From Escherichia virus KFS-EC, in the sequence record MH560358: DNA of 64,000 nucleotides; one strand, written 5' to 3'. A model generated the notes under the pieces. That model saw only the letters and a list, made by a program, of their open reading frames with translations, was not told where the DNA came from and made no database searches. Both the position numbers and the translations under genes were made by a program. The stretch's first letter is position 1. The number at the start of each line of letters is the position of its first letter. Shown one piece after another: positions 28,139 to 39,655 of this stretch.

Positions 28139-28657
28139 TTAGTTATTTTTTAATTGTTCATCTTGCAATAATGCAATCACATGCTGGCGATGTTCTTCCG
28201 ATTGAGGTACACCGAAAAAGTTTGTTTTGTAGAAATACTCTAATCGGTCTTCTCGTGTGCTCTCTTCCATCATGATCGCGGGTAGTCCGAGATTTCGGAA
28301 ACGTCGCTTTTCTGCTGGCGTAAAATCACTGTAATACAACATAGAATCATCATTACAAGCAATGCTAAACTCATCTTTCATAAAGGAGAATATTGCGTTT
28401 AAACGCTGTTTACCGTCCACGATTTCGATCTCATAGCGAGAGCCATCATCAATCTTAGCCATTGCGATAGCACCAACCGGAAAATCATTAATCAGGTTTT
28501 CGATAAACATACGTTTGTTTTCGGTGTCCCATACCAAAGGACGCTGATAATCTGGGTTCATGTTGATATAGCCATCTTCTAACCATGCTTCGTAAACAGA
28601 GATGACAAAGTTTTTAGTATTGGTATAGTAACGGCGTTTAGGCGTTAAACGGTTCAT
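28139..28657 (-). CDS. ParB-like / DUF262-like protein (172 aa)
   Basis: DYQRPLVW and DGKQRL motifs typical of the DUF262 ParB/Srx-fold domain; ATG placed 1 nt after the upstream stop. Confidence 0.55.
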   Translation of the reverse strand: MNRLTPKRRYYTNTKNFVISVYEAWLEDGYINMNPDYQRPLVWDTENKRMFIENLINDFPVGAIAMAKIDDGSRYEIEIVDGKQRLNAIFSFMKDEFSIACNDDSMLYYSDFTPAEKRRFRNLGLPAIMMEESTREDRLEYFYKTNFFGVPQSEEHRQHVIALLQDEQLKNN

Positions 28658-28658
28658 G

Positions 28659-28991
28659 TTATAGTCTCCTGAATGGATCATCACGTAAATCAATATCTTT
28701 TAAGAACTCATCCCATGAATGGCGGATATTGTTCTTAATTCTCCAGATAAGCGCAGGGATTGAACGCTCTCCCATCTGGAAGTATGGATCATATGATCCG
28801 TATGACCAATATGCTACTACAATTCCACAATCAGCGCAATAGTATTCTATTTCACTTGCTGGCGACCAAAGTCCATCAATATGATCGGTGATCTTGCTTT
28901 CGATGTTATGGCTATGACAATCAGGGCAACGGATGCAATGACCTTGTTTATCGTAATTTGACGTTAGAGAATACTTAAACAATCTCATCAT
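28659..28991 (-). CDS. Zinc-ribbon protein (110 aa)
   Basis: CIRCPDCHSH ... YYCADCG, two CxxC pairs; ATGA overlap with the upstream methyltransferase-like gene. Confidence 0.5.
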   Translation of the reverse strand: MMRLFKYSLTSNYDKQGHCIRCPDCHSHNIESKITDHIDGLWSPASEIEYYCADCGIVVAYWSYGSYDPYFQMGERSIPALIWRIKNNIRHSWDEFLKDIDLRDDPFRRL

Positions 28992-35695: not shown

Positions 35696-36169
35696 TTACT
35701 CCTTATTTTCGCGCTCGTACTTTTCGAAATAAAATTCTACTGGCTGGTCATGAATTGACAGCAAGCCAAAGCGTTTAGCCGCTCGCAATCCCATATTGCG
35801 CTGAATGTACTTCTGGAAGTTCTCGCGTATACACTTACGCCAGTATTCTAAGCCCATACAGCTTTTATAAAGATTGCATTGCACACACGCCGGATTCATG
35901 TTATCAAGTATATCATGTTCCGGTTTATGCATTCCTACAACCTTATACTTCCACGATCCATCATCATTACGGGCAATTCGTCCATTTTCATCATAGACTA
36001 CCTTTGAGCGTCGCAATACTGGTTTGATGTGGTCTGCGTGCCAGCGATCCCCTAGTTCCTCGCCACAATAGGCACAGCGTCCACCATATTTCATTTTCAG
36101 GATCTGGCGTTGCTCTTTCTTTGACAATTTTTTAGGTTTAGGGGCTTTCGACCCTTCATTATCACACAT
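35696..36169 (-). CDS. HNH endonuclease (157 aa)
   Basis: CAYCGEEL ... HADHIKP ... NMNPACVQCNLYK, classical HNH/His-Me finger with zinc ligands; start overlaps the ligase stop. Confidence 0.7.
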   Translation of the reverse strand: MCDNEGSKAPKPKKLSKKEQRQILKMKYGGRCAYCGEELGDRWHADHIKPVLRRSKVVYDENGRIARNDDGSWKYKVVGMHKPEHDILDNMNPACVQCNLYKSCMGLEYWRKCIRENFQKYIQRNMGLRAAKRFGLLSIHDQPVEFYFEKYERENKE

Positions 36170-37658
36170 CGAATACCTCTTTTACTGTATTTGCAGTGGT
36201 CTTGTCGTAGCGAATACGTTTGATGATCGGGAGAAATAAAGAGAACTCCGGTTCATCTTCTTTACGTGATTTGCTGCGAATGTACCCGTTGCATGTCATC
36301 TCAATGACTTTTCCAATCAGGTTATGACGGTCAGCCCATAACATTTCTCGGTCTAGTTCATTTCGACGATCGAACGGAATTACACGTTCAATACCATCAT
36401 CACCTTTTTCGGTTGTGGTGTCGGTTAATCCCGATCCGGTGTTAGTCATCATTCGTCCGCACGCACTACGGACAGTAAAACCGCCTACCTTATTAGGATC
36501 TTTACTATGCGGATATACATCAACAATTTCAGCGTCGAAGTCAATCACTTCTTTAAATTTAACCTGATCTTTACTGCGACGATCTTCAAATACACCATGT
36601 AAATTTTTAAGGATAATACCTTCTAAGCCCATGTTTACATAGCGATGATATACTTCGCGAGCTTCATCGATATTGTTAACTACAGTATTTTCGATTATCT
36701 GAACACGAGGATCGTTAAGTTCTTCAACAATCTGTTTTAGTTCTTCGAATCGATCTTTATATTGCTTCGTTGCTTTCTCGTTTCCGTAATACACATCACG
36801 GTCGATAACATCCCAGACAGTATAAACAATACATTGGGCTTCTTCTTTTGGAATAGTTCCTTTAAGTGATTTGTTGAGGATACCATTTCCGGTCTGACGG
36901 TCTGCAACAACGGATTCTTTTACTGCTTCCGCTACTGGCGTTAATGGCATTTCCTCTTCTTCAAATATCCATGACAGAGTACCATCATAAACGCTTTCAA
37001 CGAAGTTCTGCGCTGGTGTTTGCGAAAGGGTAGGCATATATACCAATTCGCCATCTAGAACAATTCCACGGCCTCGTAGACGCTCTAAAACCGCAAACAA
37101 ATCATCAAGTCCCTGATAGGTATTACCTGAACGGGTATAGATTGCTAATGTTTCCCCGTCAATATCAGCCATACCACGAGCGCCATCGCTTTTAAGTTGT
37201 GCATACGCCGGATACTTGATATTAGCAATAGTCTTATCAGAACATGACGATGCAAGGTGGCACGGCTGCTGGGGGATCAGTTTCTTCCATACCTTGTTTG
37301 CGGTGGTAGCGGAACAACCGCATTCCAAATCACGATTCAGGACCATCATTGCAACTTTAGCATCATCTTCTGACAAGCAGGTCAGAGTATCGGTAACTAG
37401 CTGTAATGCTGCGTTACCAGTTACTTGACGCGTGGCAAGTTTATTTTTAAAGACCTGTAATGCACCGGATAAAGACAATACAGACGAATAACGCGATGGT
37501 TTATCGTATTTCTTTACGCCAAACGTAACCTGTTTGCAATATGCCAGATAAAAGCATTCTTTCAGCGTTTCATTGCTCGCGGATTCTTTCAGGATCTTTT
37601 CTTTCAGCGATGTTTTGTCTGTTGCTGCAAGCTGGTTAATGATATTAAGAATTGACAT
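36162..37658 (-). CDS. 30: ATP-dependent DNA ligase gp30
   Basis: Motif I KSDGAR and similarity to T4 DNA ligase; start moved to ATG (MSILNI) with GAGGTGA ribosome binding site. Confidence 0.9.
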   Translation of the reverse strand: MSILNIINQLAATDKTSLKEKILKESASNETLKECFYLAYCKQVTFGVKKYDKPSRYSSVLSLSGALQVFKNKLATRQVTGNAALQLVTDTLTCLSEDDAKVAMMVLNRDLECGCSATTANKVWKKLIPQQPCHLASSCSDKTIANIKYPAYAQLKSDGARGMADIDGETLAIYTRSGNTYQGLDDLFAVLERLRGRGIVLDGELVYMPTLSQTPAQNFVESVYDGTLSWIFEEEEMPLTPVAEAVKESVVADRQTGNGILNKSLKGTIPKEEAQCIVYTVWDVIDRDVYYGNEKATKQYKDRFEELKQIVEELNDPRVQIIENTVVNNIDEAREVYHRYVNMGLEGIILKNLHGVFEDRRSKDQVKFKEVIDFDAEIVDVYPHSKDPNKVGGFTVRSACGRMMTNTGSGLTDTTTEKGDDGIERVIPFDRRNELDREMLWADRHNLIGKVIEMTCNGYIRSKSRKEDEPEFSLFLPIIKRIRYDKTTANTVKEVFDV

Positions 37659-38124
37659 TTTCACCTCGTTTTGTTAAACGTTCACGAATATCATTGAGGA
37701 TACTACAAAATTCCGATTCAGTCAATATAGTCTTTAACGGATCAGTTCCACCTATGCTATGACGTAATTTCTTATTTCCGGTAGCGAGTAATGCTTTACA
37801 AAATTCTGGGTTATTCCGTGCCATCGTAACAAATGCCAGATGTACCAGTCTGTAATAATGCTCACTCATTCGATGAATCGGGCGACCCTGAAAATATAAC
37901 ATGTGATTCTCAATCTTTTCAGATCTTCCGGTTCTTTTTGCTTTGCCACCGTGCATCAAAAAGATTTCTCTTTGTCTCTGAGGGTTCTTAAATCTTAGCC
38001 CCTGTAAAAATCCTTCTGTGCTGTTAATATCGCAACCAAATAGACGGAATGGTCTTTTATTGAAATTACTCAATTCACCCGATGGATAAGGTCCACCCGC
38101 ATAGATATCAATTTCAGAAGTCAT
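37645..38124 (-). CDS. NADAR / YbiA-like (DUF1768) protein
   Basis: IYAGGPYPSGELSNF ... STEGFLQGLRF ... KALLATGNKKL parallels E. coli YbiA (INFYS...GDFSNF ... SEHYFQAQKF ... RALLLATAPAKL). Confidence 0.6.
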   Translation of the reverse strand: MTSEIDIYAGGPYPSGELSNFNKRPFRLFGCDINSTEGFLQGLRFKNPQRQREIFLMHGGKAKRTGRSEKIENHMLYFQGRPIHRMSEHYYRLVHLAFVTMARNNPEFCKALLATGNKKLRHSIGGTDPLKTILTESEFCSILNDIRERLTKRGENVNS

Positions 38125-38278
38125 TGAAACTAATCTCGCTAATCAGAGAGAACGGATCATAATCGTCATTAGGAATATCGATAGTAATCGAATGAGGATT
38201 TACCCATACACCAAACTGGTCTTCATCGGTGAATACTTCGGTATGGATTTCGTGGATGTTTACATTCATAGTTTTCAT
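38114..38278 (-). CDS. Small protein (54 aa)
   Basis: ATG with AGGAA ribosome binding site; stop overlaps the start of the NADAR-like gene; under 60 aa. Confidence 0.35.
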   Translation of the reverse strand: MKTMNVNIHEIHTEVFTDEDQFGVWVNPHSITIDIPNDDYDPFSLISEISFNDF

Positions 38279-38320
38279 AATAAAATTCCTTAATAATCAA
38301 TAACTTACAAAATCATATAG

Positions 38321-38349
38321 CCAAAATATAGGCGGGATTATTTCCCGCC
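38321..38349 (-). terminator. Hairpin terminator downstream of gene 31
   Basis: GGCGGGAttattTCCCGCC with an A/T-rich tract on the minus strand. Confidence 0.45.
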
Positions 38350-38360
38350 GTTTAAAATCA

Positions 38361-38684
38361 TTAACCGTAAACTACAACAATATTCTGTTTGTGTGTTACA
38401 GTCCATTTCAGATCGATCTCTTCTTCCTTCTTAACGCCATTAATAACGTCTGGATGAGGAACTTTATTAAGTTTCCCATGAGGAAGCAATACAGTCTTGC
38501 CCAGCAATTCTTTATCAACGTTATCACCGATATCAATAATCTTACCGACTAAAGGAATCTCTCCCATAGTTCGTTTTTGCTCGATGATAATACCAAAATC
38601 GCTCTTTACTTCGGTCCCTGCGCTTTCCGCTTTAGCTTCAATGATCACATAGTCACCAAGTGCTTTAGGAGTTTTAACGGTCAT
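38361..38684 (-). CDS. 31: Co-chaperonin gp31 (GroES-like)
   Basis: 107 aa; GDYVII and VPHP motifs as in T4 gp31; AAGAGGT ribosome binding site. Confidence 0.75.
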   Translation of the reverse strand: MTVKTPKALGDYVIIEAKAESAGTEVKSDFGIIIEQKRTMGEIPLVGKIIDIGDNVDKELLGKTVLLPHGKLNKVPHPDVINGVKKEEEIDLKWTVTHKQNIVVVYG

Positions 38685-38720
38685 AATTTTCTTACCTCTT
38701 CAATTCATCTCAATAGTAAA

Positions 38721-39332
38721 TTATTTATATTTCGCGACCTTTGGATTTCTCCGCAGACCGGAATGTATTTGCGCTATACAACAATAAGAAACATTAAACA
38801 TATCAGCTATAATTTGCTTCTTAACTTTTCCTTTAAGCCGCATTATTTCTTCGACTTGCGCATTTGTCAGTTTTGCCCGTGAGTGGTTTTCACCGACATT
38901 GTTATTGAGTCCAGTTCTAAATGAATGTCTCATATTTTCTAGTAAGGTTACTATTTCTAGATTCCACACATAATTGCAGGTTTTTACACCATTGATGTGA
39001 TTAACCTCAAGTCCGGTAACGTCTCCTAGAAATGCATTTGCTACAAGTCGATGTATCTTTTCGGCTTTAACTGAGATTTTACCATTGTCTTTTTGTTTTG
39101 ACAATGTTGAATAATAATATCCATATCGGTCTAAAATTGGTTTTATTATTTTACCAGCACGTTTTTGTTTTACGAGCTTAATATTACCGGGAGAAACTTC
39201 TCTATAAAATTCGATACTTCGGTCAATAGATCTCAATCTACCATAATTAGAGATTTCATACCACGGATAACCTACAGCTTGTCTCCATTCTTCCGGCGCT
39301 GGTAATACGATATTATCATCTTTTGTTTCCAT
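38721..39332 (-). CDS. HNH homing endonuclease (NUMOD4-like N-terminus + HNH_3)
   Basis: WYEISNYGRLRS NUMOD4-like segment and HRLVANAF...VNHINGVKTCNYVWNLE HNH_3 segment; free-standing between gene 31 and cd. Confidence 0.65.
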   Translation of the reverse strand: METKDDNIVLPAPEEWRQAVGYPWYEISNYGRLRSIDRSIEFYREVSPGNIKLVKQKRAGKIIKPILDRYGYYYSTLSKQKDNGKISVKAEKIHRLVANAFLGDVTGLEVNHINGVKTCNYVWNLEIVTLLENMRHSFRTGLNNNVGENHSRAKLTNAQVEEIMRLKGKVKKQIIADMFNVSYCCIAQIHSGLRRNPKVAKYK

Positions 39333-39334
39333 TG

Positions 39335-39655
39335 TCAACTACCACCGTAAATTTCTACGATCTGTGCTGGAGTCAGCCCGTCTACATTAATCAGACTATC
39401 AAGCCCAAAACTACGGAAACCTTCAACTGCAATTTCATATACTGGCAAAGATGTTTCTGATTCTTTACGCGGTTTTTCAACATTAGGAACTAACCACTTT
39501 TCGTATGTTTCGAAAGGCATCAGTGCCGGATCTCGCGTGGCGATCATCTCGCGGACAGTACCATCTTTCTTAGTAAACTGCAAAGAGTGAGTACCGACCG
39601 AAAACATTTTCTTTAGTGCTTCACGAAGTGCGATATTATCAATTTGTTCGGTCAT
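39335..39655 (-). CDS. Hypothetical protein (106 aa)
   Basis: Start moved to ATG (MTEQID); overlaps the end of cd. Confidence 0.5.
   Translation of the reverse strand: MTEQIDNIALREALKKMFSVGTHSLQFTKKDGTVREMIATRDPALMPFETYEKWLVPNVEKPRKESETSLPVYEIAVEGFRSFGLDSLINVDGLTPAQIVEIYGGS

Follow-up and report, generated by a model that had tools for sequence, protein, structure and literature searches.

The 64,000-nucleotide (nt) stretch of Escherichia virus KFS-EC analysed here (sequence record MH560358; hereafter the window) carries, next to its DNA ligase gene, a gene for a protein of 159 amino acids (aa). The window is that of a Krischvirus (family Straboviridae), a T4-type phage of the RB49/ECD7 kind, and the gene is the Krischvirus ortholog of T4 gene 30.3 (adfN). 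Its product is probably a stand-alone ADP-ribosylglycohydrolase of the NADAR fold that has no partner toxin and counters the host defence DarTG1. Orthology, synteny, NADAR fold, catalytic Glu and His, C-terminal helix and purifying selection are directly supported by the present analysis. The function of the gene family has already been published; the only new point is an Arg at position 44 that is found throughout the clade.

Orthology with T4 gp30.3

The 159-aa protein matches Pfam family PF08010 (Phage_30_3, 'Bacteriophage protein GP30.3') with E=1.3e-38 and 132.4 bits, the cut-off being 36 bits, and phrog_652 with E=3e-45. By BLASTP it aligns over its full length with T4 gp30.3 (from AF158101) at 39% identity (E=1e-30). 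The order of genes in T4 is 31, rIII, 30.9 to 30.4, 30.3, 30.2, 30.1, 30, alt.1, alt, and in the window 31, 31.-1, 30.3, 30, with 30.3 between 31 and 30 as in T4. Within this variable stretch between the two core genes, 30.3 is the sole gene common to both phages. Synteny agrees with the sequence match, and the window gene is the ortholog of T4 30.3.

Both proteins are single-domain members of the Phage_30_3 family (152 aa in T4), and both have the catalytic Glu, the phage-specific His and the C-terminal helix. They differ at the phosphate-binding Lys of T4 (K43), where the window protein has Arg (R44). The surroundings differ as well: 30.3 of the window abuts the ligase gene, 30.2 and 30.1 being absent, whereas T4 keeps both between; T4 30.4 and the upstream gene 31.-1 are not related; and phages of the window type have unmodified cytosine DNA, unlike T4. 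Gene 31.-1 was considered as the counterpart of T4 30.4, which would have made it a candidate for the T-even factor that AdfN needs, and was rejected (no similarity, different PHROGs).

Homologs of gp30.3 are widespread, with tblastn finding them in 1508 phage records and a profile search returning 1674 relatives at E<=0.001 among 1.84 billion cluster representatives. Closer to the window, every one of the 58 phage records that positions 36000-39500 matched, at 95-99% DNA identity, is RB49/ECD7/JSE/Phi1-like. The gene is full-length and in a single piece in every one of these 58 Krischvirus records (97.5-99.4% protein identity) and is labelled 'hypothetical protein' in nearly all of them. A single substitution, S68T, separates the window protein from RB49 gp30.3 (99.4% identity), and three positions differ from the ECD7 protein. 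A relative at 69% identity, L005, lies on a 6.4-kilobase metagenomic contig in identical gene order (rnlA, spanin, pseT, cd, 31.1, 31, 31.-1, 30.3, 30) and with 30.3 overlapping the ligase gene by 14 nt as in the window.

Comparison of adfN with the L005 copy gave a nonsynonymous rate (dN) of 0.21 and a synonymous rate (dS) of 1.75, hence a dN/dS of 0.12 that is approximate, dS being near saturation. By this estimate the gene is under purifying selection. The low ratio, taken with the 58 intact alleles, argues that function is maintained and is not decaying as in the RB69 allele described below.

NADAR fold and subfamily

Similarity to characterised NADARs is weak at the level of single sequences. 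The Pfam NADAR model PF08719 gives E=0.021 and 15.5 bits, under its 35.1-bit cut-off, and the BLASTP alignment with E. coli YbiA covers 106 aa at 23% identity (E=0.005). Profile and structure comparisons go further. A family profile of 13 sequences, searched against all PDB sequences, had YbiA (2b3w) as its only match (E=0.041), and direct alignment of the profile with YbiA by hhalign gave 90.7% probability and E=1.2e-6 over 117 columns, nearly the whole domain. AlphaFold2, run on the alignment, gave a model with a mean predicted local distance difference test score (pLDDT) of 93.7 and a predicted template modelling score (pTM) of 0.88; with this model Foldseek retrieved 2b3w (E=3e-6) and 8bau (E=1e-3). 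While pairwise similarity to YbiA is weak, similarity at the fold level is strong, and a NADAR fold for the 159-aa protein is confirmed by the model and by profile comparison.

An earlier annotation made from the letters alone (the sequence-only reading) had called the product a NADAR (YbiA-like) protein that aligns with E. coli YbiA over its hallmark segments. The alignment holds up in the hhalign comparison. The profile match to NADAR fails in Pfam, where it falls below the cut-off, and succeeds with hhalign. The NADAR assignment thus stands by fold and profile comparison, but membership of the YbiA subfamily does not. That subfamily is defined by a Glu in the last beta-strand (PMC11125620), and the window protein is not of this kind because His replaces the Glu. 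By its residues the protein is placed in a distinct phage NADAR/gp30.3 subfamily, which is neither the YbiA nor the DarG1 subfamily; it comprises the NADAR core domain only and has no N-terminal extension.

The window protein can be compared with three groups of known NADARs. With the N-glycosidase YbiA of E. coli (2b3w) it shares the N-terminal motif SNF...G...sE..fQ..+F, but only 18-23% identity, and His stands in place of the subfamily-defining Glu. YbiA is encoded by a chromosomal gene beside dinG, described as part of a LexA-controlled operon (PMC11125620), whereas the window gene belongs to a lytic phage. DarG1, of the BC4488 subfamily (E. coli C7 NADAR; Geobacter lovleyi, 8bat), is the NADAR antitoxin of DarTG1 and has an N-terminal extension, a catalytic Asp in the last strand and an adjacent DarT1 gene; the window protein has none of these and has His in that strand. 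The neighbours of adfN are 31.-1 and the ligase gene; apart from the Alt-type genes (PF03496) ~10 kilobases off, the window has no transferase gene. The protein is an orphan antitoxin-like enzyme of a lytic phage, unlike the toxin-paired DarG1. AdfN-Bas32 and AdfN-Bas60, from T5-like and Vequintavirinae phages, are also phage NADARs countering DarTG1, but they represent other NADAR clades, independently acquired, and work without the context of a T-even infection (PMC11825919).

Among relatives outside the window, two representative proteins of ~290 aa (P0028 and P0053) contain a full gp30.3-type NADAR domain together with an incomplete second one, without the catalytic Glu, which either interrupts the first or is fused to it. 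These are tandem or degenerate NADAR architectures.

Published activity of the T4 ortholog and the predicted mechanism

NADARs reverse the guanine-N2 ADP-ribosylation made by DarT1 (Schuller et al., Mol Cell 2023, PMC11543638), and purified T4 gp30.3 cleaves guanine-ADP-ribose, and not thymine-ADP-ribose, in DNA (Suskiewicz group, Toxins 2024, PMC11125620). Johannesman et al. (Nat Commun 2025, PMC11825919; preprint PMC11257639) named gp30.3 AdfN, for anti-DarT factor NADAR. In their study, T4 or T2 without adfN lost ~4 logs of plating on DarTG1 hosts, AdfN supplied in trans rescued RB69, and purified AdfN stripped ADP-ribose from DarT1-modified DNA (PMC11825919). The T4 variants E36A and K43A were impaired, K43A only partially. 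The RB69 allele is 15 residues shorter, its C-terminal helix is gone, and its activity is reduced or lost (PMC11825919). A transposon screen found 30.3/adfN essential only on DarTG1 hosts (bioRxiv 10.1101/2025.11.20.689424), and T4 adfN is dispensable on plain K-12 (PMC11825919, bioRxiv 10.1101/2025.11.20.689424). Experiments on the T4 ortholog thus support the proposal of the sequence-only reading that the gene counters a DarTG-like host defence (PMC11825919, PMC11125620). The plaque and hydrolysis assays which that reading suggested have already been published for T4, with the predicted result (PMC11825919, PMC11125620).

For the window protein, the substrate, the chemistry and the anti-DarTG1 phenotype are predicted by analogy with the T4 ortholog and with solved NADAR structures. 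In an infected DarTG1 cell, DarT1 would ADP-ribosylate guanine N2 in the phage DNA and replication would be blocked. AdfN would bind the ADP-ribose and cut its N-glycosidic bond to guanine, by which a replicable template would be restored. The basic residue 44 would hold the phosphates, as K50 contacts the diphosphate in 8bau, and the distal ribose would lie between E37 and H122.

The DNA of RB49 is of unmodified cytosine, the phage having no hydroxymethylase or glucosyltransferase genes (PMC4041780). A preference of AdfN for hydroxymethylated DNA was suggested in the 2024 preprint (PMC11257639), and the unmodified DNA of RB49 was considered as a conflict with it. This was rejected: T4-GT7, with unmodified DNA, still depends on AdfN, and the published paper withdrew the idea (PMC11825919). 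Since T4-GT7 depends on AdfN, the unmodified cytosine of RB49-type DNA is no obstacle to its action.

Active-site residues and a Lys-to-Arg change

E37, R44 and H122 are the predicted active-site residues. For a residue census, the 150 best of the 1674 cluster representatives, the homologs from the first search, T4 gp30.3 and YbiA were aligned to the family profile. E37 corresponds to T4 E36 (E88 of the C7 NADAR), and Glu occupies this position in 163 of 168 aligned domains. H122 is the phage-type His, which is present in 158 of 162 aligned domains and aligns with the Glu of 'LVEH' in YbiA. Seven residues after the Glu, in a gap-free part of the alignment with T4, R44 corresponds to T4 K43 (K95 of the C7 NADAR). 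The same catalytic E, R and H occur in RB49 and ECD7. In the AlphaFold2 model residues 136-157 form an intact C-terminal helix.

The six Arg cases at position 44 comprise the window protein, the cluster representative 98% identical to it and the metagenomic relative at 69% identity, together with two degenerate second half-repeats, from which the Glu is missing as well, and one unrelated protein of 355 aa. In these alignments the change from Lys to Arg is a rare, clade-wide trait of Krischvirus-like phages. Phosphate binding is expected to be retained by R44, which may nevertheless change efficiency.

Points against an anti-DarTG1 role and alternative explanations

Several points count against transferring the T4 function to the window gene. 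Identity to the experimentally tested T4 protein is only 39%. T4 AdfN is fully effective only in a T-even infection (PMC11825919), so that its function may not carry over from one phage genus to another; co-expressed with DarT1 in uninfected cells it does not rescue, whereas DarG1 does. T4 also has the anti-DarT factors AdfA (61.2) and AdfM (tk.4), and tblastn found no significant homolog of either within the window, a result that is uninformative for the rest of the genome. In the literature library that was searched, no relevant test of RB49 or any Krischvirus with DarT or DarTG was found. Finally, position 44 is Lys in 160 of the 168 aligned domains and Arg in only 6, and the corresponding K95R variant of E. 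coli C7 DarG1 keeps hydrolysis of guanine-ADP-ribose in vitro yet does not rescue from DarT1 in vivo (PMC11543638).

Two related proposals arise from R44. The first, to which a small chance is given, is that R44 marks a shifted substrate range or efficiency, the enzyme being tuned to another guanine-ADP-ribosylating defence or to RNA adducts, or being free of a T-even-specific cofactor. A slightly less probable version, itself unlikely, is that this NADAR has been weakened or retargeted, acting poorly in vivo on DNA modified by DarT1 and being tuned to another nucleic-acid adduct, such as guanine-ADP-ribose in RNA or to the product of another host transferase. It draws on the behaviour of K95R, on the restriction of Arg among intact domains to the Krischvirus-like clade and one unrelated protein, and on the finding that NADARs of all four families also clear guanine-ADP-ribose from RNA (PMC12945103). 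Arg keeps the positive charge, however, and K95R keeps catalysis; the active site is otherwise intact, as is the C-terminal helix; selection is strongly purifying and synteny is conserved, which points to the same role as in T4; and T4 K43A is itself only partly defective (PMC11825919).

The sequence-only reading had also proposed that the protein might regulate modifications made by the phage itself, having recognised two ADP-ribosyltransferases. Both transferases are indeed present, each matching PF03496, and their genes, adjacent to each other, lie ~10 kilobases from adfN on the same strand. Alt-type enzymes (the T4 Alt/Mod family) modify arginine residues in proteins. By contrast, NADARs cleave base-linked ADP-ribose (on guanine and some on cytosine), and those characterised, T4 gp30.3 among them, have guanine-linked ADP-ribose of nucleic acids as their substrate (PMC11125620, PMC12945103), which leaves regulation of phage-made modifications without support. 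Although a comparative study reported that NADAR genes of T4-like phages are expressed early along with transferases (PMC9503650), deletion of the gene from T4 has an effect only on DarTG1 hosts (PMC11825919, bioRxiv 10.1101/2025.11.20.689424) and the transferase genes are not adjacent to adfN. That AdfN removes or tunes ADP-ribosylation which the Alt-type transferases of the phage itself place on host proteins or RNA is accordingly most improbable.

Equally remote is a housekeeping role of the YbiA type, in which the protein, as an N-glycosidase, would act on intermediates of the riboflavin pathway or on soluble immune signals derived from ADP-ribose: low-molecular-weight ADP-ribose derivatives have been proposed as targets of phage NADARs (PMC9503650), but the YbiA-defining Glu of the last strand is His in the window protein (PMC11125620), the Pfam NADAR model scores under threshold and the demonstrated substrate of the T4 ortholog is DNA.

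Locus and neighbouring features

Coordinates are collected in Table 1. The placement of the 159-aa open reading frame immediately upstream of DNA ligase, as first read from the letters, proved correct, both genes being on the minus strand. The ligase frame directly downstream, as listed by program, spans 36162..37664 (500 aa), but the true start is the ATG at 37658, before which stands a GAGGTGA ribosome-binding site. The junction reads ...CGAGGTGAAAATGTCAATTCTTAA, with the ligase ATG within the last adfN codons, giving a 14-nt overlap. The same ligase start and arrangement are annotated in the RB49 GenBank record, and the junction with GAGGTGA before the ligase ATG is conserved in L005. Translation of adfN and the ligase gene is probably coupled.

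Table 1. Positions of adfN and associated features in the window
Feature	Position	Strand	Basis or remark
Alt-C-terminal-like ADP-ribosyltransferase, 274 aa	24831..25655	minus	PF03496 E=4e-16; ECD7 'similar to C-terminal part of Alt'
alt, full-length Alt homolog, 683 aa	25734..27785	minus	PF03496 E=2e-9; ECD7 'alt'
Gene 30, ATP-dependent DNA ligase	36162..37658	minus	PF01068 E=2.8e-22; phrog_114 E=1.4e-141
adfN / gene 30.3 ortholog	37645..38124	minus	ATG-to-TAA open reading frame, 159 aa; single-domain phage NADAR
Gene 31.-1 (RB49 name), 54-aa acidic protein	38114..38278	minus	phrog_15277 E=2e-41; RB49 annotation
Terminator-like G+C-rich hairpin and T run	38331..38349	minus	Consensus scan, pattern match only
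Gene 31, co-chaperonin	38361..38684		Beyond the hairpin, upstream of 31.-1

On the other side, the stop of 31.-1 overlaps the adfN start by 11 nt, and 31.-1 appears to be translationally coupled to adfN. The two genes are conserved together in Krischvirus-like phages, L005 included, with dN 0.60 and dS 1.5 between 31.-1 and its L005 counterpart. The 82-nt gap from gene 31 to 31.-1 holds the hairpin GGCGGGA-AATAA-TCCCGCC (7 pairs, 6 of them G-C) followed by TATATTTT. From its sequence this looks like a terminator-like boundary of the upstream transcription unit, ahead of the 31.-1/30.3/30 cluster. No clear sigma-70-like promoter was seen between the hairpin and 31.-1, where sites found by scanning were no more frequent than in shuffled sequence.

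Two endonuclease genes lie near the cluster, both on the minus strand. A NUMOD4 plus HNH_3 homing-endonuclease gene (38721..39338) stands between gene 31 and 31.1 and is polymorphic: many Krischvirus genomes match the region as two pieces with ~82% coverage, and L005 is without the gene. The second (35696..36169; 157 aa, PF01844 E=5e-6) is an HNH endonuclease gene directly downstream of the ligase gene, its start overlapping the ligase stop by 8 nt. Farther off, 28139..28693 (minus) encodes a 184-aa protein that matches GmrSD_N (DUF262) at E=6e-20 and has no counterpart of the nuclease half that GmrSD-type restriction enzymes carry at the C terminus; ECD7 annotates it as hypothetical.

Implications

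If the gene acts as its T4 ortholog does, phages of the RB49 type, with unmodified cytosine, would retain the same orphan antitoxin-like counter-defence as T4. Such retention fits the published view that AdfN is independent of DNA modification; it is consistent with that view and adds nothing new to it. The proper annotation of the gene would be adfN, anti-DarT factor NADAR, DNA ADP-ribosylglycohydrolase, in place of 'hypothetical protein'. The clade-wide R44 could help to show why catalysis and protection are uncoupled by K95R in DarG1. Should R44 mark a shifted substrate range or efficiency, Krischvirus AdfN would offer a natural variant with which to work out what lets a NADAR protect in vivo.
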